Shown one piece after another: positions 25,741 to 40,340 of a stretch of 64,000 nt of DNA (the stretch's first letter is position 1; every line of letters begins with the position of its first letter). Below the pieces are notes generated by a model. That model ran no database searches. It had not been told where the DNA came from and was given only the letters and a program-made list of their open reading frames with translations. Made by a program: the position numbers and the translations under genes. The stretch spans positions 1 through 64,000 of IMG/VR virus record IMGVR_UViG_3300017717_002521, one strand, 5' to 3'. Source of the DNA: a virus.

Positions 25741-26535
25741 ATGAATAGCTTAGATAATGATTATCAGAAACTTCTTAGAAGAGTTCTTGCTGTGGGTGTA
25801 AATAAAACCGATAGAACAGGCACTGGTACTAAATCTATATTCGGATCATCAATCAGACATGATATGTCAGAAGGCTTTCCTATCTTAACCACTAAGAAGG
25901 TTGCTTTCAAGACTATGGTTACTGAGTTAAAATGGTTCCTTAGAGGAGATACTAATATAAAGTACCTTCAAGATAACAATTGCAAGATATGGGATGGTGA
26001 TTACGAAAAGTCTGGTAGAACAGATGGAGATTTAGGACCTATCTACGGTAAGCAATGGAGAGATATAAACGGTATTGATCAGCTAGAGAACCTTATTACA
26101 GGTATTATTAGTAATCCAGATGGTAGAAGACATTTAGTTGATAGTTGGAATGTAGAAGATTTAGATAAGATGACTCTTCCTCCTTGCCATTATTCATTCC
26201 AATGTTATGTAGCAGATGGTAAGCTCTCTCTTATGTGGAATCAAAGAAGTGCTGACCTATTCTTAGGAGTACCGTTTAATATTAGTAGTTACGGTCTGTT
26301 ACTGTTATTACTATGTAAAGAGACTAGATTAGAGCCTGGAGAGTTGATAGGAAACTTTGGTGATGTTCATCTATATTCTAATCATTTAGATCAAGCAGAG
26401 GAACAAATAGGTAGATATTCTTACGACCTTCCGGAAGCTAAGCTTAGTTGCTATGATATATATAGAGGAGATTTCGATGTAGAACTTATTAATTATGAAT
26501 CTCACCCTATAATCAAAGCATCTTTATCAAATTAA
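25741..26535 (+). CDS. thyA: Thymidylate synthase
   Basis: DRTGTGT, GPIYGKQWR, LPPCH, QRSADLFLGVPFN, HLYSNH. Confidence 0.96.
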   Translation: MNSLDNDYQKLLRRVLAVGVNKTDRTGTGTKSIFGSSIRHDMSEGFPILTTKKVAFKTMVTELKWFLRGDTNIKYLQDNNCKIWDGDYEKSGRTDGDLGPIYGKQWRDINGIDQLENLITGIISNPDGRRHLVDSWNVEDLDKMTLPPCHYSFQCYVADGKLSLMWNQRSADLFLGVPFNISSYGLLLLLLCKETRLEPGELIGNFGDVHLYSNHLDQAEEQIGRYSYDLPEAKLSCYDIYRGDFDVELINYESHPIIKASLSN

Positions 26536-26536
26536 A

Positions 26537-26569
26537 AGTTGGCTATTAAAATATTTTTTATTATATTTA
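26537..26569 (+). promoter_or_regulatory. -33/-7 promoter (AGTTGG-N19-TATATTTA) of the queD-queE operon
   Basis: Recurrent motif immediately upstream of a riboswitch-like element. Confidence 0.7.
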
Positions 26570-26582
26570 TTAATATGACTAT

Positions 26583-26611
26583 AGTGTCGTAGCACCACTT
26601 TAAAAACACGA
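26583..26611 (+). ncRNA. preQ1-I-like riboswitch candidate
   Basis: P1 AGUG/CACU, loop UCGUAGCAC, tail UUAAAAACACGA; between promoter and ATG of the operon carrying queD and queE. Confidence 0.7.
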
Positions 26612-26614
26612 AAA

Positions 26615-26893
26615 ATGGTAAATTTAAATTTAAAAGAAATCGAGGATGACCTCTATGACGTTGATTCTCGCAAATTAAGGAACGAAGAGTATCTCTACAG
26701 TAGACGTTCTAAAGCTAAAAGTCCTTCACAACCTACAAATCACCCAGATGCTAAAAAGCATCAAATAGTATCTTTTATTAAGTCTGGAGTTAGAATAGCA
26801 GGGTACGTATTATTAGCTGCCGATATGTTGGTAGCCTGCGCAGTAGTTCTTATATTATCAGAAGTAGTAGGTATCTACGAAGAACTGGTATAA
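26615..26893 (+). CDS. Small membrane protein heading the queD-queE operon
   Basis: C-terminal hydrophobic hairpin HQIVSFIKSGVRI...SEVVGIYEELV; coupled to queD. Confidence 0.6.
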   Translation: MVNLNLKEIEDDLYDVDSRKLRNEEYLYSRRSKAKSPSQPTNHPDAKKHQIVSFIKSGVRIAGYVLLAADMLVACAVVLILSEVVGIYEELV

Positions 26894-27360
26894 TGGGAAA
26901 ATTTACATCAACGAAAGTATTTGACGGTTTCTCGACTGTATTCCGTCAATGGAAAGCCGAAACTACTCACTGTAGGTATTTACATGGGTATGGTATATCA
27001 TTTAAATTATGGTTTGAAGGAGATTTGGATGAACGTAACTGGGTATGGGACTTCGGAGGTATGAAAAGAGCTAAAGGTACTATAGACGGTATGTCTCCTA
27101 AAGCATGGTTTGATTACATGTTTGATCATACTTTTGTAGTAGCCGAAGATGATCCTTTTAAAGAATCTTTTCTTAAAATGAATGAAGCAGGTGTAGCTCA
27201 AGTAAGAATAGTACCTGCTACAGGAGCTGAAAGATTTTCTCAATTTATTTACGATAAAGTAAATCCCTTTATAAAAGAAGAAACTCAAGGTAGAGTAAAA
27301 ATATCAAAAGTAGAATTTAGAGAACACGGTAAAAACTCAGCAATATATGAGCCTAGGTAG
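26893..27360 (+). CDS. queD: 6-carboxytetrahydropterin synthase
   Basis: HCRYLHGY, WVWDFG, FDH, GAE, EHGKNSA. Confidence 0.92.
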   Translation: MGKFTSTKVFDGFSTVFRQWKAETTHCRYLHGYGISFKLWFEGDLDERNWVWDFGGMKRAKGTIDGMSPKAWFDYMFDHTFVVAEDDPFKESFLKMNEAGVAQVRIVPATGAERFSQFIYDKVNPFIKEETQGRVKISKVEFREHGKNSAIYEPR

Positions 27361-28123
27361 AATAGAAGACTACAATAAAAATTTACCAATAGTAGAAGTA
27401 TATACTGCAGTACAATCGGAAGGTTCAAGACAAGGTTTTCCTACTATTGTTATTAGAACTACTGGTTGCACTCATAGGTGTTACTTCGGTGAAGGTGGCT
27501 GGTGTGATAGCTGGTATACAAGTATTCATCCAGAAAAAGGTAAGTTTAATTTTAATGACATTATTAAAGCATATGATGATAATCCTCATATATCAGAAAT
27601 GATGTTAACTGGTGGTTCTCCTACTATGCATGGTAAACTTGTAAATGAACTTACACATTTTGCTAATGAAAGAGATATCTTTATTACAATAGAGAATGAA
27701 GGTAGTCATTTTTTACCTACTGACTATCCTATAGATTTACTTTCTATTAGTCCTAAGTTTAGTAACTCTATTCCTCAACTAGGAGTAGAAACTCCTCAAG
27801 GTAAGATTGTAGATGAAAAAATGATTAAACAGCATAATAAGTTTAGACTTAATAAAGATGCTATAAAAAAGTCAATAGAGTATCATAAGGATTATCATAT
27901 TAAACCTGTATTAGATAAAGATTTAAGGATTTATGGTGAAGTTTATAAATTCTTAGAAGAGTTAGAGATACCTAATGAAAAAGTTTGGTGTATGCCTGCA
28001 GGTGATGATAGAGAATCTTTAATGGAAAGCTACCCAGTTGTTATGGACTTTGTTAGAGATAAAGGATATAGATTTACTGGTAGAGCACATATTATGGCGT
28101 TTAATACTGAAAGAGAAGTATAA
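27347..28123 (+). CDS. queE: 7-carboxy-7-deazaguanine synthase (radical SAM)
   Basis: VQSEG, IRTTGCTHRC...WCDS, LTGGSP, SISPK; adjacent to queD. Confidence 0.92.
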   Translation: MSLGRIEDYNKNLPIVEVYTAVQSEGSRQGFPTIVIRTTGCTHRCYFGEGGWCDSWYTSIHPEKGKFNFNDIIKAYDDNPHISEMMLTGGSPTMHGKLVNELTHFANERDIFITIENEGSHFLPTDYPIDLLSISPKFSNSIPQLGVETPQGKIVDEKMIKQHNKFRLNKDAIKKSIEYHKDYHIKPVLDKDLRIYGEVYKFLEELEIPNEKVWCMPAGDDRESLMESYPVVMDFVRDKGYRFTGRAHIMAFNTEREV

Positions 28124-28484: not shown

Positions 28485-28723
28485 AACTACCAGTAATAAG
28501 AAAATTAAGTGAGTTCTCGTTAACTGAAATCAATAACTCAATTAAGTTATTAGAATCTATAACAGATTCAAGAGGAATTACTGAAAATGAGCTTGATGCA
28601 TTAGGAGAAATTTTATCTAATCTTTATGGAGCTCAAAACGTAAGAGAGTCTGTAATGAGAGGTTTAAAAAGAACTGATGCATTAAATAATTTTATGAAAC
28701 GTGTAACATCAGTAGGTAAATGA
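28481..28723 (+). CDS. Bacteroidota-type small protein (DUF6952-like)
   Basis: MKLPVIR...ELDALGEILSNLYGA...ALNNFMKRV. Confidence 0.6.
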   Translation: MKLPVIRKLSEFSLTEINNSIKLLESITDSRGITENELDALGEILSNLYGAQNVRESVMRGLKRTDALNNFMKRVTSVGK

Positions 28724-29028
28724 GTTATATTATAGGTAAACCATGTGAAGCAACTTGTGATACTGCCTGTGTAGCAGTTTGCCCAGTTAACTGTATACAT
28801 GGTCCTATAGATATTGATGGAGCAGGTCAAGAAGTATCAGGTATGGAAATAGGTCCTACCGATATGCTTTACATCAATCCAGACGAATGTATTGACTGTG
28901 GAGCTTGTTTGCCGGAATGTCCAGTTGAAGCTATTTATGATAGTGAAGAAGAGGCTATTGAAAAAGATGGTACTGACACATACGTAAAGAGAAATTATAA
29001 CTTTTTTGGCTTACAATATAATGTATAA
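28720..29028 (+). CDS. Dicluster Fe-S ferredoxin
   Basis: CDTACVAVCPVNCI and LYINPDECIDCGACLPECPVEAI. Confidence 0.92.
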   Translation: MSYIIGKPCEATCDTACVAVCPVNCIHGPIDIDGAGQEVSGMEIGPTDMLYINPDECIDCGACLPECPVEAIYDSEEEAIEKDGTDTYVKRNYNFFGLQYNV

Positions 29029-29386
29029 GTATAAAGCAAAATTAGTAAGGGTTGTAGACGGCGACACTGCCGATGTTATGATAGACCTTGGGTTTAACGT
29101 TTGGACTAAACAAAGATTAAGGTTCAAAGGAGTTGATACTTGGGAAAAAAGAACTCGAGATAAAGAAGAAAAAATAAGAGGTCTAGCTGCTACTGCATTT
29201 ACTACAGAATATTTAGAAAAAAATAATGGACTGTTTACTATTCAATCATATGGAGTGGGTAAATATGGAAGAGTATTAGCAGAAATTTTTATAGAAGGAG
29301 AAAAGAAATCTCTAAATGAGTTATTATTAGAAAATGGCCACGCTTATGTCTACGATGGTGGCAAGAAAAAAGTATTTCAAGGATGA
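29021..29386 (+). CDS. Thermonuclease (SNase) family protein
   Basis: RVVDGDT, GVDTWE, GKYGRVLA, LLENGHAYVYDGG; start likely MYKYKAK. Confidence 0.85.
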   Translation: MYKYKAKLVRVVDGDTADVMIDLGFNVWTKQRLRFKGVDTWEKRTRDKEEKIRGLAATAFTTEYLEKNNGLFTIQSYGVGKYGRVLAEIFIEGEKKSLNELLLENGHAYVYDGGKKKVFQG

Positions 29387-29542: not shown

Positions 29543-32017
29543 ATGAGAAAACTCGTTACAGTGCTGTTAATGTTTTTAGCAGTTGGAGCTTACGCTCAAG
29601 AAACGAGTACTGATTCTAAGACCATCTTAGATGTAAACTTAGAAGAAGTTGTTGTATCGTCTAGAGTTATTGATGTCGCAAAAGAAAGAGAGACACCAAT
29701 TGCAGTTAGTACGATCTCAGCACAAGAAGTACTCCTTAAAGTAGGAAACCAAGAGTTTCCAGAAATTATGAACAAGACACCTGGAGTGTATGCTACTAAA
29801 CAAGGAGGAGGATACGGTGATAGTCGTATTTCTTTAAGAGGTTTCGATCAGCGTAATACTTCTTTCCTTATTAACGGTCAACCCGTTAATGATATGGAAA
29901 ATGGTTGGGTTTATTGGTCAAACTGGCAAGGATTGACAGACGTGACGTCTAGCATCCAAATCCAACGTGGTCTTGGTGCCACATCGTTAGCAGTTCCTTC
30001 AGTCGGTGGAACTGTTTCTATTTTCACTAAGAGTGCAGAGAAAGCTCAAGGTGGGTCTATTACTCAAATGGTAGGTAACGACGGTTACATTAAAACAACC
30101 GCTCTTTACAATACTGGAGTAAATGACAAAGGATGGTCTTCTTCTTATTTATTGACTAAATGGTCTGGTAACGGATATATTTACAATACTTCAGGAGCTG
30201 GTTGGACTTATTTTGCATCTGTTGGTTACACACCAGAAGGTTCAAAACATAGCCTAAACTTATCAGTTTTAGGTGCTGGACAATGGCATCATCAAAGAGA
30301 TGTTTGGGTATCTATTAGAGATTACCAGAACTTTGGTAAAGCCGGTATTGATCAGAGATGGAATACTAACGGTGGAACGTTAAATGGTAGTGAGTATAAC
30401 TTACGTAGAAACTTCTACAATAAACCTCTTGCTACTCTAAACTGGGATTGGGATATTTCAGAAAACGTTCAATTAAATACATCTGTATACGGTTCAGCCG
30501 GAAGAGGTGGAGGAACAGGTCCTAGAGGTAGAAACTATTATGAAGGATCTATCGATATGTTACCTTTCCGTAAGGATCTAACAGAACACTACCTAGAAGA
30601 TGGTAAAGGAACTAGAAATGCTGATGGTACTATTAACTATGACGCAGTAGTTGCTCATAACTCACAATACGAAGTAGGGTCTCATAATGATAAAGATTAC
30701 GCTAGAAACGTATTAGTACGAAGAGCATCTATGAACTCTCATAACTGGATTGGAGCTATCTCTAAGCTTAATATCCAGAAAGGTAGTATGAGATATTCAT
30801 TAGGATTAGATCTTAGGGATTACACAGGTTATCACTACAGAGCAATGAATGATCTATTAGGTCTTAATCAATATGCTTCTACTGGTAACCAAAACTTAAG
30901 TACTCAACTATATAATTCATCTGATTTAATATCAGCTAACCCATTTAGAGGTACTAATATTGGTGATAATGAAGCAAAGATTGCTTATTATAATATTGGA
31001 TTTGTAAAATGGGCTGGATTTAACGGATTAGTAGAATATGCTGGTGATAAGATTACTGCAGTACTACAAGCCGGAGCATCTAACCAACAGTTCCAAAGAG
31101 AAGATAGATTTGCAAACGTAGATAATCCTATTTCTGATAAAGCTAACTTAGGTGGTGGATATCTTAAAGGAGGATTAAACTATAACTTTACTGAAAAATC
31201 TAACGTATTTGTAAACGCTGGATTTATTGACCGTCAGCCTTTATTTGACGCAGTATTCCCTAACTTTGGAAATGACGTTAATCCAGACCTACAAAATGAA
31301 CGTATCGAATCATTTGAGATTGGGTATGGTTATATAGGTAAGAGATTAAGACTAAATGTTAATGCATATAACACTAACTGGGGTAATAGATTTGTTTCTA
31401 GAAGTTTATCTAACCAACAAGGTGTAGATGGTACAGCTCAGTTTAGAAATATTGATGTAACACATAAAGGTTTCGAAGCTGAAGGTACTTACACAGTAGG
31501 AGGTACTAAGCTTAGAGGTATGCTATCTATTGGGGATTGGACTTATACTAAAGACTTTGAAGCAGAGTTATTTGATGAGAATCAACAATCTATCGGTACT
31601 GGTAAACTTTACTTAAAAGGAGCTAAAGTAGGAGATGCTGCACAAACTACAGCATTATTAGGTATTGATCAGAAGATTGGGTCGAACATTAGAGTTGATC
31701 TAGATTACAGATTTGTAGATAACCTATACGCTGACTATAGTATTACTGATTCAGCTTTTACTTCTCCTGATAATGATGGAGCGTTAAAACTACCTTCATT
31801 CGGTTTATTAGATTTAGGAGCTACATTTTATGCTAATAATGGATGGTCGTTAAGAGCGAATATTAATAACTTATTAGATGAAACTTATATTGCAGAGTCT
31901 AATAGTAATATTCATACAGATGCTGATTCCACTACTTGGAACGGTGTTGATGTTAGAAATAGTGTTTGGTTCGGCTTCGGTAGAACTTGGAACGTTTCTC
32001 TCAAATATAAATTTTAA
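29543..32017 (+). CDS. TonB-dependent outer-membrane receptor
   Basis: Signal peptide, TonB-box-like LEEVVVSS, plug ISLRGF...LINGQP...IQIQRG, C-terminal NINNLLDETY...GRTWNVSLKYKF. Confidence 0.92.
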   Translation: MRKLVTVLLMFLAVGAYAQETSTDSKTILDVNLEEVVVSSRVIDVAKERETPIAVSTISAQEVLLKVGNQEFPEIMNKTPGVYATKQGGGYGDSRISLRGFDQRNTSFLINGQPVNDMENGWVYWSNWQGLTDVTSSIQIQRGLGATSLAVPSVGGTVSIFTKSAEKAQGGSITQMVGNDGYIKTTALYNTGVNDKGWSSSYLLTKWSGNGYIYNTSGAGWTYFASVGYTPEGSKHSLNLSVLGAGQWHHQRDVWVSIRDYQNFGKAGIDQRWNTNGGTLNGSEYNLRRNFYNKPLATLNWDWDISENVQLNTSVYGSAGRGGGTGPRGRNYYEGSIDMLPFRKDLTEHYLEDGKGTRNADGTINYDAVVAHNSQYEVGSHNDKDYARNVLVRRASMNSHNWIGAISKLNIQKGSMRYSLGLDLRDYTGYHYRAMNDLLGLNQYASTGNQNLSTQLYNSSDLISANPFRGTNIGDNEAKIAYYNIGFVKWAGFNGLVEYAGDKITAVLQAGASNQQFQREDRFANVDNPISDKANLGGGYLKGGLNYNFTEKSNVFVNAGFIDRQPLFDAVFPNFGNDVNPDLQNERIESFEIGYGYIGKRLRLNVNAYNTNWGNRFVSRSLSNQQGVDGTAQFRNIDVTHKGFEAEGTYTVGGTKLRGMLSIGDWTYTKDFEAELFDENQQSIGTGKLYLKGAKVGDAAQTTALLGIDQKIGSNIRVDLDYRFVDNLYADYSITDSAFTSPDNDGALKLPSFGLLDLGATFYANNGWSLRANINNLLDETYIAESNSNIHTDADSTTWNGVDVRNSVWFGFGRTWNVSLKYKF

Positions 32018-32297: not shown

Positions 32298-33089
32298 ATG
32301 AAAAAATTAAATTTTGCAGATTGGGTAGGAATGGGTTTTATTATTATAATGATAATAGTATTTCTTCTTATACCTTCTCCCGCCAAAGCAGATTGGGGTA
32401 AAACAGGACATAGGGTTATAGGACAAATAGCACAAGATAACTTAACTCCCAAAGCCCAAAAAGAAATATCAGATTTACTATACGGCGAAACATTAGCTAC
32501 AGTTAGTACATGGGCAGACGAGATTAGATCTGACTCTTCTTATGACAGTTACAAAGTATGGCATTACGTTAATATGCCTTTAGATAAAAAATATGAAGAA
32601 GTAGAACATACTCAAGACAATGTAGTTATAGGTATTCAAAAATGTATAGCAGTTTTAAAAGATAATTCAGCAAGTAAAGAAGAAAAAATTTTTCATTTAC
32701 GATTTTTAGTACATTTAGTTGGTGATATTCATCAACCTTTACACGTAGGTAGAGCAGAAGACTACGGCGGAAATAAAATATATGTAGAGTTTTTTAAAGA
32801 CGGAACTAATATACATAGAGTATGGGATACCGATATGATTGAAAACTTTAATATGAGTTATACTGAAATATCCGAATATCTACAGTCATATAAAAAACAA
32901 GATTTTGCTCAAGGAGACGCAATATGCTGGGCGAACGAATCTCAACAAATAGTTAAGAAAGTTTATGAAATAGAAGTTGGAGAACAGCTTTCATATTCTT
33001 ATATTTACAGTAACTTCTATATAGTAAAAGATAGGTTATATAGAGCAGGTATCAGATTAGCTAATTTATTAAACTCAATATATGTCTAA
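32298..33089 (+). CDS. S1/P1 nuclease, exported
   Basis: Signal/anchor followed by WGKTGH, WADEIR, WHYVN, HLVGDIHQPLH, HRVWD, AGIRLA. Confidence 0.93.
   Translation: MKKLNFADWVGMGFIIIMIIVFLLIPSPAKADWGKTGHRVIGQIAQDNLTPKAQKEISDLLYGETLATVSTWADEIRSDSSYDSYKVWHYVNMPLDKKYEEVEHTQDNVVIGIQKCIAVLKDNSASKEEKIFHLRFLVHLVGDIHQPLHVGRAEDYGGNKIYVEFFKDGTNIHRVWDTDMIENFNMSYTEISEYLQSYKKQDFAQGDAICWANESQQIVKKVYEIEVGEQLSYSYIYSNFYIVKDRLYRAGIRLANLLNSIYV
32975..33007 (+). promoter_or_regulatory. -33/-7 promoter (AGTTGG-N19-TATATTTA) inside the nuclease gene
   Basis: Exact recurrent motif; would drive the genes from 33082 onward. Confidence 0.6.
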
Positions 33090-35733: not shown

Positions 35734-35763
35734 TGAGTCGTAGAACCTCAATAAAAACAAAAG
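35734..35763 (+). ncRNA. preQ1-I-like riboswitch candidate
   Basis: P1 UGAG/CUCA, loop UCGUAGAAC, tail AUAAAAACAAAAG ending 3 nt before the folE ATG. Confidence 0.72.
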
Positions 35764-35766
35764 TAA

Positions 35767-36480
35767 ATGCCTAAAAAATTTATAGAAGGAACTGAATTAG
35801 TTCGTGCCGGTTTTGCTAACGGTATATCAAGTCAACTAGCAAAGAAACAACAAACTGAAGGACCTGAAGCAAGGTTAGATTCAGAAGAAAAACAAGTTAT
35901 AATAGAAAATGCTGCTAAAGCATATGGAGACTTCTTAACTGCTCTAGGATGTAATTATAAAGAAGATCCTAACTCTTCAGATACTCCAATGAGAGTAGCA
36001 AAAGCATACGTTAACGATTTATGGGCTGGAAGATATAGTCCACTAGACCGTATTACAGCATTTCCATCAGACGGTTATGACGGTATAGTTCAAGAGAGTA
36101 ACATACCTGTAACGTCTATGTGTTCTCACCACCATCAAGCTATTAGAGGTACAGTAAGTATTGCTTATATAGCATCTCAAGATGGTAAAGTAGTAGGTTT
36201 ATCTAAACTAAATAGAATAGTAGAGCAGTTCGGTAGAAGAGGTGCTATACAAGAACAGCTGACTGTAGCTATACATAATGCTGTAGATAAGATATGTGAA
36301 GGTAACTTAGGAGTAGCAGTACAAGTGAATGCAACTCATGCATGTGTATCATGTAGAGGAGTAAAGCATCATAGTGCTTCAATGCAAACAGCTAAACTTA
36401 CAGGTGCTTTCTTAGATGAAGATTCTGCTAAAGCAGAGTTCTACAAGAATATAGAATTAGCAAGTATATGCAAACATTAA
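35767..36480 (+). CDS. folE: GTP cyclohydrolase I
   Basis: TPMRVAKAY, SMCSHHH, VVGLSKLNR, IQEQL, HACVSCRGV. Confidence 0.96.
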   Translation: MPKKFIEGTELVRAGFANGISSQLAKKQQTEGPEARLDSEEKQVIIENAAKAYGDFLTALGCNYKEDPNSSDTPMRVAKAYVNDLWAGRYSPLDRITAFPSDGYDGIVQESNIPVTSMCSHHHQAIRGTVSIAYIASQDGKVVGLSKLNRIVEQFGRRGAIQEQLTVAIHNAVDKICEGNLGVAVQVNATHACVSCRGVKHHSASMQTAKLTGAFLDEDSAKAEFYKNIELASICKH

Positions 36481-37266: not shown

Positions 37267-38061
37267 ATGATTAAAATAGCTCATGAAGCTCCTATAGATA
37301 TTTTTGACGAAGTTCAAAGGTTAACTGATTACGATTACGCTTTAGTTCATTTATTAGAGCAAAATGGTAGATATAGAGATACGTTTGAAAGAGCAGTTAA
37401 AAGAGGTAGAGAAGTTATTTTAGATAACTCTATTTTTGAGTTAGAAGAAGCATTTGAAGCTGATAGATTTGCATTATGGGTTGAAAGATTAAAACCTACT
37501 TGGTATATAGTTCCAGATGCATTGGAGAATGCTGAAAAGACTATGGAACAAGCACTTGATTGGGTTAAAAGTTATAAAAGTATACCTGGGAAAAAAATAG
37601 GTGTTGTTCAAGGTAAAAACTATCACGAGATTGTAGCTTGTTATAAGTTTATGGACACTAGAGATATTGATATGATAGCTATTTCATTCGATTATTCGTA
37701 TTATAGTGATTCTATTCCTCATCCTAACAAGTATGTTAGCTGGATGCTAGGACGTGTTAAGCTACTAGGAGATTTAGAGAGAGACGGTATAATTAATAAA
37801 GATAAACCTCATCACTTACTAGGTTGTGGATTACCTCAAGAATTTAGTTTTTATAAAAATGCTAACTATAAATGGCTCTACTCTTTAGATACTTCTAACC
37901 CAGTAGTCCACGGTCTAAAAGGTATAGAGTATGACAGAGAAGGACTTTGGTCTAAAGAATCTCAAAAGTTACATGAATTAATTAATGTACCTATAGAAGA
38001 GATTGATATTGAGAAAGTAACTAGTAATATAGAGAAGTTTAGATGGCTAACAAATGGATAA
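37267..38061 (+). CDS. dpdA: TGT-fold guanine transglycosylase-like protein (DpdA-like, probably DpdA3 type)
   Basis: ILDNS, IVPD, GVVQG, HHLLG, SLDTSNP correspond to TGT catalytic motifs; located in the que gene cluster. Confidence 0.75.
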   Translation: MIKIAHEAPIDIFDEVQRLTDYDYALVHLLEQNGRYRDTFERAVKRGREVILDNSIFELEEAFEADRFALWVERLKPTWYIVPDALENAEKTMEQALDWVKSYKSIPGKKIGVVQGKNYHEIVACYKFMDTRDIDMIAISFDYSYYSDSIPHPNKYVSWMLGRVKLLGDLERDGIINKDKPHHLLGCGLPQEFSFYKNANYKWLYSLDTSNPVVHGLKGIEYDREGLWSKESQKLHELINVPIEEIDIEKVTSNIEKFRWLTNG

Positions 38062-38570
38062 CATTCTTCAGTCAAACTGGAGCTGAGATAGCTGATTTAT
38101 CTGAAAATATTGGAAGATGGCCTGATATTATTATTACTAATAGTAGACCAGACCACTTAAGAACTATAGATCCTAGAATAGTAGAATACGGTTATACTGA
38201 AGTACCTAATAAACCTACAGTAAGTGATTTAGATGCTGTATTACAAGATAATGCTGTTATAACATTACATGGTTGGTTGAGGATAATGCCTGAAGTAATA
38301 TGTAATAAGTATTTGATTTATAATGGTCATCCTGGACTTATTACTAAATATCCTGAACTTAAGGGTAAAGATCCTCAAGTAAAAGCTCATAAACTTGGAC
38401 ATGAAGTAGCAGGTGCAGTTATACATAAAGTAACAGCAGGAGTAGATGAAGGTAGGATTATTATGGAGGAATATTTCAATGCTACTCAGTTGGATCTTGA
38501 TAGTTTATTTCGTATATTAAGAGATAGATCATTGTATATGTGGTCTAATCTACTTAAACAGGTTTTATGA
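38043..38570 (+). CDS. PurN-like formyltransferase (candidate preQ1 formyltransferase, DpdN-like)
   Basis: FSQTG, LHGWLRI, YNGHPGL, HKVTAGVDEG; overlaps the dpdA-like gene. Confidence 0.82.
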   Translation: MANKWITFFSQTGAEIADLSENIGRWPDIIITNSRPDHLRTIDPRIVEYGYTEVPNKPTVSDLDAVLQDNAVITLHGWLRIMPEVICNKYLIYNGHPGLITKYPELKGKDPQVKAHKLGHEVAGAVIHKVTAGVDEGRIIMEEYFNATQLDLDSLFRILRDRSLYMWSNLLKQVL

Positions 38571-39434: not shown

Positions 39435-40340
39435 ATGAGTGAAGTTAAAAATTATGAAGCAGTAAAAGAAATTGCTTCTAAACATTTAGGTAAAGTAGGC
39501 GGTGATGGTTATAGTGATCAATACAACGCTGAATTATTAGTTAAAATACCTCGAGTATTAAATCGAGAGGGGTATGGATTAACCGGTAAAGAATTTAAAG
39601 GTGTTGATACCTGGAACGCCTATGAAGTATCAGCTATAACTACTAAAGGTCAACCCGTTGCTGGGATGTTAAAAATAGTTTGTCCTTCTGATAGTGAATA
39701 TCATGTAGAGTCAAAATCTATTAAACTATACCTTAATTCATTTAATATGACTGAGATTGGAGATACAGCAGCTGATTGTATTACCGGCATAGAAGCTAGA
39801 GTAAAAAGAGATTTAGATGAGTTATTGGAAACTATTACTACCATAAGCTTTTATGCTTCAGAATTTGAAACTGAACCTCTTTCTTTTGCTAATGATTATA
39901 AAGATCTAGGTGAGGAAGTTAACTTAGATTTGATAGACTTTACTGCATTTAAGTCAGATGCTACTCAATTAGAGGTAAAAGAAGAAGAAGGTGAAATAAA
40001 ATTTAGATCTAATCTATTAAGGTCTAACTGTAGAGTAACTAATCAGCCGGATTGGGGAGATGTATTTATTTATATGAAAGGAAGTAAATTACCTGTAGCT
40101 GATTCGTTAGCTAAATATATAGTAAGTCATAGGACAGTTAGTCATTTTCATGAGGAGATATGCGAAATGATATTTGCTCATCTAAGTGAAAGATTTGAAC
40201 CTGAGCAATTAATGGTGTCGTGTTTGTATACTCGTAGAGGAGGAATAGATATTAATCCTATTAGAGCTACTCATAGTTATTTAATACCAGAGTTTTTTAC
40301 TAACCCCGATTTTACTATTAGAAAAACTTTAAGACAGTAA
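39435..40340 (+). CDS. queF: NADPH-dependent preQ0 reductase (bimodular QueF)
   Basis: QueF motif VESKSIKLYLNSF, LRSNCRVTNQPDWG, FHEEICE, YTRRGGIDINP. Confidence 0.95.
   Translation: MSEVKNYEAVKEIASKHLGKVGGDGYSDQYNAELLVKIPRVLNREGYGLTGKEFKGVDTWNAYEVSAITTKGQPVAGMLKIVCPSDSEYHVESKSIKLYLNSFNMTEIGDTAADCITGIEARVKRDLDELLETITTISFYASEFETEPLSFANDYKDLGEEVNLDLIDFTAFKSDATQLEVKEEEGEIKFRSNLLRSNCRVTNQPDWGDVFIYMKGSKLPVADSLAKYIVSHRTVSHFHEEICEMIFAHLSERFEPEQLMVSCLYTRRGGIDINPIRATHSYLIPEFFTNPDFTIRKTLRQ

Follow-up and report, generated by a model that had tools for sequence, protein, structure and literature searches.

Is a short RNA element in front of the deazaguanine genes of a virus a riboswitch, and if so, which ligand would it sense? 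The element (26583-26610, + strand) reads AGUG-UCGUAGCAC-CACU-UUAAAAA-CACG and ends 4 nt 5' of an ATG at 26615 in the window, by which we mean the whole 64,000-nt stretch of viral DNA that was analyzed. The initial annotation described it as the second of two preQ1-I-like riboswitches in this virus, and the order of stem, loop, stem, and tail in front of the ATG is seen as described there. Comparative evidence supports a predicted preQ1-I-like riboswitch pair that would control the deazaguanine genes; it comes from covariation, gene context, a match to the known ligand pocket, expression platforms in bacteria, and co-occurrence with QueF. In other words, the phage probably throttles the synthesis of the modified guanine for its own DNA by means of a shrunken preQ1 riboswitch.

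The leader element, its twin, and their genes

The element was proposed to head a queD-queE operon. A queD-like and a queE-like gene do lie downstream of it, but the first gene is a 92-aa ORF and not queD (Table 1). This ORF has no match in Pfam or PHROG and none by tblastn against phages, and a megablast search with the operon found nothing among GenBank phages either. The ORF family has at least 2581 homologues, all of them unnamed and from marine metagenomes. The family is marked by an invariant PDxKxHQxxSFxKSxxR motif and by a hydrophobic C-terminus that ends in GIxEELV.

A consensus promoter had also been proposed upstream of the element. The two hexamers (TTGGCT-17-TATATT) are present, but the promoter scan at this position gave a match score that was not above that of shuffles. 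The promoter-like call therefore rests on a TA[TC][AC]TT box that is conserved in homologous leaders, where it is found at most 60 nt upstream of P1 in 95 of 100 distinct leaders, mostly 5-20 nt off. No terminator was found 3' of the element. We infer a transcription start site that places the aptamer at or near the 5' end of the small ORF-queD-queE mRNA.

The second element of this virus lies upstream of folE. It reads TGAG-TCGTAGAAC-CTCA-ATAAAAACA in DNA letters at 35734-35759, with the folE ATG at 35767. The two loops are identical at 8 of 9 positions and UAAAAACA is common to both elements, which confirms what had been reported about the loop and the tail. Both elements also precede deazaguanine biosynthesis genes as annotated, one the small ORF-queD-queE genes and the other folE. 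That the motif occurs nowhere else in this virus was confirmed when R1, a covariance model of the motif, was run on the whole 91-kb record. It found two sites only, with 55.2 bits for the queD-queE leader and 48.0 bits for the folE leader, and the next match scored 16 bits. The P1 stems of the two elements both pair and their changes are compensatory, but the statement that they share only the closing G-C is wrong. Pairs 2 and 4 are G-C in both elements; at pairs 1 and 3, an A-U in one element corresponds to a U-A in the other.

One suggestion of the initial annotation fails. The loop UCGU was thought to pair with the tail ACGA, which would give the queD-queE copy a P2 geometry or a ligand of its own. 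This idea falls because homologous leaders do not conserve the UCGU/ACGA pairing. The sequence after the tail ACA varies (CGA, CAA, CAC, CCA, UUA, and others), and the loop variant UCACAG retains the tail ACGA without complementarity; the helix was rejected on both grounds.

Thermodynamic folding of the element is no better than that of shuffles (z from -0.6 to +0.3), and since the hairpin alone is very weak (-1.5 to -2.4 kcal/mol), minimum-free-energy folding and z-scores are uninformative here. When folded alone, the queD-queE element favors a competing GUGU(CGUA)GCAC hairpin at 26584-26595. This GUGU/GCAC hairpin needs a C at loop position 7, which is the base found there in copies with NGUG stems; copies with GGAG or UGAG stems mostly have an A. 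The competing hairpin may be a ligand-free alternative fold, or the pattern may reflect shared ancestry.

Table 1. Coordinates of the element, its twin, and the neighboring genes in the window
Feature	Position	Strand	Basis or remark
Promoter-like TTGGCT-17 nt-TATATT	26539-26567	+	9/12 matches; upstream of the aptamer
P1 5' strand AGUG (DNA AGTG)	26583-26586	+	partner is 26596-26599
Loop in DNA letters, TCGTAGCAC	26587-26595	+	
L1 UCG	26587-26589	+	U26587 is the counterpart of the ligand-contacting U6 in preQ1-I; U in 67/67 distinct main-class rows
Putative P2 5' strand UAG	26590-26592	+	loop-versus-tail pair counts
L2 CAC	26593-26595	+	C26595 is the putative specificity cytosine, with A before C as in type II
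P1 3' strand CACU (DNA CACT)	26596-26599	+	pairs with AGUG
Sequence 3' of the stem in DNA letters, TTAAAAACACGAAAA	26600-26614	+	followed by ATG at 26615
L3 A-rich tail UUAAAAA (DNA TTAAAAA)	26600-26606	+	L3 lengths in copies
Putative P2 3' strand CACG	26607-26610	+	C26607 with G26592; G26610 with U26590
Sequence after L3 in DNA letters, CACGAAAA	26607-26614	+	followed by ATG at 26615
92-aa ORF, function not assigned	26615-26893	+	first gene behind the aptamer
queD-like gene (PTPS family)	26893-27360	+	Pfam PF01242, 1.3e-13; PHROG 2389, QueD-like, 6e-42
queE-like radical-SAM gene	27347-28123	+	PHROG 2076, QueE-like, 1.6e-47; Radical_SAM match
Twin aptamer UGAG-UCGUAGAAC-CUCA-AUAAAAA-CAAA	35734-35761	+	upstream of folE; 48.0 bits
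folE (GTP cyclohydrolase I)	35767-36480	+	Pfam PF01227, 6.6e-42
DpdN-like (PurN-like) formyltransferase	38043-38570		sequence matches
queF (preQ0 to preQ1)	39435-40340	+	Pfam QueF_N and QueF

Distribution in phages and conservation of pairing

IMG/VR was searched with the exact loop and tail as the core and with the stem left unconstrained. The exact core is present in at least 119 loci. Among the 132 exact-core matches listed, 115 have all four stem pairs, compared with a chance expectation of ~2%, and the remaining 17 lie in unrelated contexts, mostly within coding sequence. Where the first downstream ORF was typed among the matches listed, it was the small ORF in 62 cases, folE in 44, queD in three, and queE in three, and it belonged to no other family. 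With 62 of the 112 typed copies, the 92-aa ORF family is thus the one met most often as the first gene after the aptamer, and it is absent directly behind the folE copies. Random placement upstream of unrelated genes, a concern raised at the outset, does not describe this pattern, as all typed matches precede pathway genes or the small ORF that leads queD-queE. The motif always lies on the coding strand, 2-23 nt 5' of the ATG.

Further evidence comes from leaders that were gathered by protein homology without use of the motif. The same motif is found in them with the loop variants UCACAG, UCGAAG, UUGAAG, UUCGAAG, UCGGAG, and UUUUAA, and the leaders of more distant homologues are plain promoter leaders. 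In cultured phages, the motif is found upstream of folE, in the leader at ~32361-32396 of NC_055915.1, in Flavobacterium phage immuto_2-6A, whose dG is fully replaced by formyl-dPreQ1 (bioRxiv 10.1101/2023.04.13.536721). It is absent before queD and folE in Cellulophaga phage phiST, which makes 7-deazaguanine and not preQ1.

The gene set of immuto, including QueF and the PurN-like formyltransferase, is also present in the window. A DpdA-like gene (PHROG 19058, no Pfam match) overlaps the PurN-like formyltransferase gene at 37267-38570, and this overlap resembles the arrangement of DpdA3 and DpdN in immuto. The shared arrangement suggests that the DNA of this phage carries formyl-dPreQ1. Both phage-type aptamers, 2.3 kb apart, were also seen with the small ORF and folE on a 5.9-kb contig (L307, NYWG01000135.1) in a Verrucomicrobiales MAG, which is almost certainly a phage contig misplaced in that bin.

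Six P1 stem types occur in phages and bacteria taken together, namely AGUG/CACU, GGUG/CACC, GGAG/CUCC, UGAG/CUCA, UGUG/CACA, and CCUG/CAGG. P1 is always 4 bp long and covaries across more than 100 contigs; the changes fall in pairs 1 to 3, and the closing G-C (pair 4) is the same throughout. All 268 P1 cells (4 pairs in each of 67 distinct rows) are paired. The covariation score, for which P1 and two P2 pairs were scored together, is 0.323 versus 0.087 in shuffles, with covariation events that are few and phylogenetically clustered. A cytosine stands before the P1 3' strand in 67 of 67 distinct main-class rows. It is preceded by an A in 66 of the 67, the exception being L135 (UCGUAGCCC) with a C.

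The pattern of pairs makes a P2 pseudoknot of loop and 3' tail likely. Loop G6 and the first non-A base of the tail form G-C in 57 distinct copies, A-U in 16 that belong to two separate lineages, and another combination in one. Loop nucleotide 4 and tail position +3 form U-A in 29 copies, U-G in seven, C-G in three, and G-C in one, and are unpaired in 16 of 56, with few independent events. As a result of this small number of independent events, P2 is rated likely and not proven. L3 spans 6-9 nt, with the 7-nt length in 47 of the 58 distinct copies, and a run of 4-7 A residues follows P1 in every copy.

Likeness to preQ1-I riboswitches and a proposed mode of action

The comparison used the aptamer sequences of Tte and Bsu given in PMC10639078 and the class rules of PMC11625349 and PMC10622847. 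The preQ1-I type II RNAs of Thermoanaerobacter tengcongensis and Bacillus subtilis queC have the H-type pseudoknot layout that is predicted for the phage element, a hairpin followed by an A-rich 3' tail. Two of the shared features are invariant in the phage main class, namely the G-C closing pair that forms the pocket floor and the U that is the first loop nucleotide. Others are the AC directly before the P1 3' strand, in which C is the specificity base, the loop core UCG(C/U)AG, and the A-run of the tail, whose conserved last A is followed by a C that would pair with the loop G. An AC before the P1 3' strand is a type II rule, and the role of U6 in ligand contact is described in the same paper (PMC11625349). 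P2 of Tte consists of two canonical pairs that flank non-canonical steps (PMC11625349), and the phage P2 would likewise have two canonical pairs around such steps. Each ligand-contacting position of the type II preQ1-I aptamers is retained in the main class. Like preQ1-I RNAs, the phage element is placed upstream of queuosine/preQ1 biosynthesis genes.

The differences are mainly in size. Tte and Bsu have a 5-bp P1, a 10-12-nt loop, and an 8-9-nt L3, whereas the corresponding lengths in the phage element are 4 bp, 9 nt, and 7 nt. Compared with Tte alone, P1 is 4 bp instead of 5, L2 is 1 nt shorter, and L3 is 7 nt instead of 9. The whole aptamer is ~28 nt long in the phage and 33-34 nt in type II preQ1-I. 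Unlike the known type II RNAs, the element is phage-borne, would control a DNA-hypermodification pathway, and involves no Shine-Dalgarno (SD) sequence. Type III (E. coli yhhQ; PMC10622847) has a pyrimidine-rich loop, UU after P1, a tail that is longer and variable, and an SD (AAGG) that is paired in P2; the loop of the phage element, in contrast, is UCGUAGNAC, and no SD is present.

The PreQ1 family of Rfam (RF00522, gathering threshold 39 bits) had no match at E<=10 on a 66-nt slice (26565-26630) or on 26300-26900. No Rfam family reached its gathering score within the window, and the Rfam scans at E<=10 gave chance matches only, to miRNA and snoRNA models. On the virus's own genome, RF00522 hit two unrelated places at 16 bits and not the elements, and on the bacterial copies of the mini-motif it had no match. 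The model is probably silent because P1, L2, and L3 are shorter. Since the dimensions differ and RF00522 does not respond, the element is not filed under RF00522 as modelled. Judged by its sequence features, it is closest to type II, and we describe it as a compact variant of that preQ1-I kind and a putative ligand binder.

How would such an element act? It is quite probable that this miniature pseudoknot of the preQ1-I type II form works as a translational OFF switch in SD-less mRNAs, with preQ1 as the predicted ligand. The ligand, the OFF polarity, and the translational level of control are what we infer, and a translational OFF switch is the most economical model. PreQ1 would be made via FolE-QueD-QueE-QueC-QueF and put into DNA by DpdA. 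Free preQ1 would pair with the loop-closing cytosine and stack on the G-C pair that closes P1, clamped in place by the first U of the loop and the last A of the tail. The bound ligand would lock the A-rich tail into the P1 groove, with the loop UAG pairing to CAnn just 3' of the tail, and the knot would end 4-12 nt upstream of the AUG. Folding would thereby hide the ribosome landing site in the A-rich leader and reduce translation, since these SD-less phage mRNAs are proposed to depend on an open A-rich leader. The folE twin included, the first three enzymes of a GTP-draining pathway would come under feedback from free preQ1.

The position of the tail and the make-up of the leaders are consistent with this model. 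The tail C lies mostly 5-12 nt 5' of the ATG across copies and 7 nt 5' of it in the window. An SD-like tetramer is found for 4 of the 59 long ORFs of the window, and upstream regions are A-rich and G-poor. SD-poor, A-rich upstream regions are expected in Bacteroidota-type translation.

Bacterial copies, QueF, and the choice among readings

A scan of 185,579 species genomes for the motif core found the identical loop UCGUAGCAC and tail UUAAAAACA in bacteria, with a 4-bp P1 of the CCUG/CAGG type. The bacterial core lies before queC in ~25 Thalassospira species and before queD in Vibrio and Marinomonas. The Thalassospira copies differ from the phage ones by a P0-like hairpin upstream. The Vibrio and Marinomonas copies are followed by a second hairpin and then by an SD-sequestering hairpin, whereas the phage copies abut the start codon. 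In Vibrio sp. HA2012 the second hairpin carries a U-run and is scored as a terminator; in the gammaproteobacterial copies, a conserved hairpin farther downstream buries an AGGA SD. The downstream hairpins of the gammaproteobacterial copies are classical riboswitch expression platforms. The SD-hiding hairpin of the Vibrio/Marinomonas queD leaders (L305:3333-3450; L312:2455-2564, minus strand; L314:7209-7305) is conserved as GUGCUGCAUUGUUA...AGGACAAUGCA. A stretch reading GUGCUGC complements the loop GUAGCAC of the aptamer and so may have an anti-sequestor role.

The presence of the element in phages also follows that of QueF. QueF is encoded in 31 of the 31 phage records tested that have the strict motif, as well as in the window's own genome. 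It is found in none of 19 records that have a divergent sister element, called variant 2, and QueC is present in those records. Two of the 19 variant-2 records are 97-100% complete, and in one of these two folE has a plain leader. The QueE of the QueF-less records is 67-84% identical to that of the window. Taken together, the split between QueF and the motif and the closeness of QueE indicate that, among close relatives, the kind of aptamer changes exactly with the capacity for making preQ1.

Variant 2 has an A in place of U as the first loop base. It lies between queD and queE with the form AGUG-A[AC][UA][GA][UA]AA[AC]AC-CACU-(U)UAAAAAAUU.., and it was found in 31 of 80 QueE-homologue loci. 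Copies are located at L334:132-168, at L453:6520-6556 (minus strand), and in ~30 other viral loci (L333-L365, L375-L450). Loop positions 2-5 of variant 2 are variable, and the stem and the tail are nearly fixed. Variant 2 may be either a relic or a sensor that has been re-tuned; in the latter case, it would differ by the A as first loop base and by a P2 of A-U pairs.

Would the ligand of the main class be preQ1 itself? The same fold could be a riboswitch for preQ0, the formyl-preQ1 base, CDG, or 7-deazaguanine, which we consider unlikely. PreQ0 is also bound by known preQ1-I aptamers (PMC10622847), the phage pathway continues to formyl-preQ1 through the DpdN-like formyltransferase, and with L2 and L3 shortened, the pocket around the 7-substituent could have a different shape. 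The invariable company of QueF and the strict motif argues for preQ1 instead, as do the QueF-less relatives, which make preQ0 (QueC+) and have the divergent form, with none at folE. The identical cores in bacteria that make ordinary queuosine also speak against another deazapurine. As for the formylated base, formylation is proposed to take place on preQ1 or on DNA-borne dPreQ1 (bioRxiv 10.1101/2023.04.13.536721), and hence a free formyl base may not exist.

A different kind of explanation is a protein-bound translational operator or an mRNA-stability hairpin, in which a phage or host protein reads the loop and the A-rich tail. A hairpin this weak on its own with a strictly conserved loop is what protein operators look like, and the conserved uncharacterized small protein encoded directly downstream could in principle autoregulate. 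The bacterial copies with their expression platforms are a strong argument against such an operator, since the core precedes queC or queD in Alpha- and Gammaproteobacteria that are without these phage genes and there carries terminator or SD-hiding platforms. Moreover, the small ORF does not follow the folE copies, and all conserved bases map to ligand-contacting or floor positions of solved preQ1-I aptamers. A protein operator is therefore very unlikely in our estimate. The position of the element directly 3' of a promoter-like box could also point to a DNA-level feature, such as an operator or a promoter-proximal inverted repeat, or the resemblance to an aptamer could be due to chance. Both are hardly credible: the compensatory changes preserve pairing and not sequence, the motif is asymmetric with its A-rich tail on one side only and keeps to the coding strand at a short distance from the ATG, and full stems among the listed core matches far exceed the chance expectation. 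The preQ1-sensing riboswitch is thus the reading that we retain.

No paper was found in the literature that ties a riboswitch to phage 7-deazaguanine DNA modification or to phage deazaguanine genes, and a search with the loop sequence returned unrelated papers only. The paper that defined formyl-dPreQ1 in phage immuto mentions no riboswitch (bioRxiv 10.1101/2023.04.13.536721), and phages and viruses do not come up in a 2024 review of the preQ1 family. What the present analysis adds is the split by QueF, the copies in bacteria that carry expression platforms, and the family of variant 2. A bolder, joint claim would be that this is the smallest natural riboswitch aptamer (~28 nt), that it hides an A-rich landing site without an SD in Bacteroidota-type mRNAs, that it gives a virus feedback over a pathway rewriting every genomic G, and that variant 2 is not a decaying relic but a sensor re-tuned to preQ0 or another 7-deazapurine. 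It is doubtful that all of these parts would hold together.

Phage-encoded riboswitches are rare. If the element binds preQ1, the virus would balance the drain on GTP against the supply of the modified base by a metabolite-sensing RNA, and natural aptamers would have a smaller minimum size than before. Binding would also show how a riboswitch can gate translation without a Shine-Dalgarno sequence, and it would mean that the Rfam PreQ1 model has a blind spot in which bacterial copies are hidden too. Direct testing is possible, as immuto_2-6A and Flavobacterium sp. LMO8 form a cultured phage-host pair.

Downstream of the queE-like gene, the phage encodes an 824-aa TonB-dependent-receptor-like protein with Plug and beta-barrel domains (29543-32017). 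A ferredoxin-like gene (28720-29028) and a nuclease-like gene (29006-29386) lie near it.
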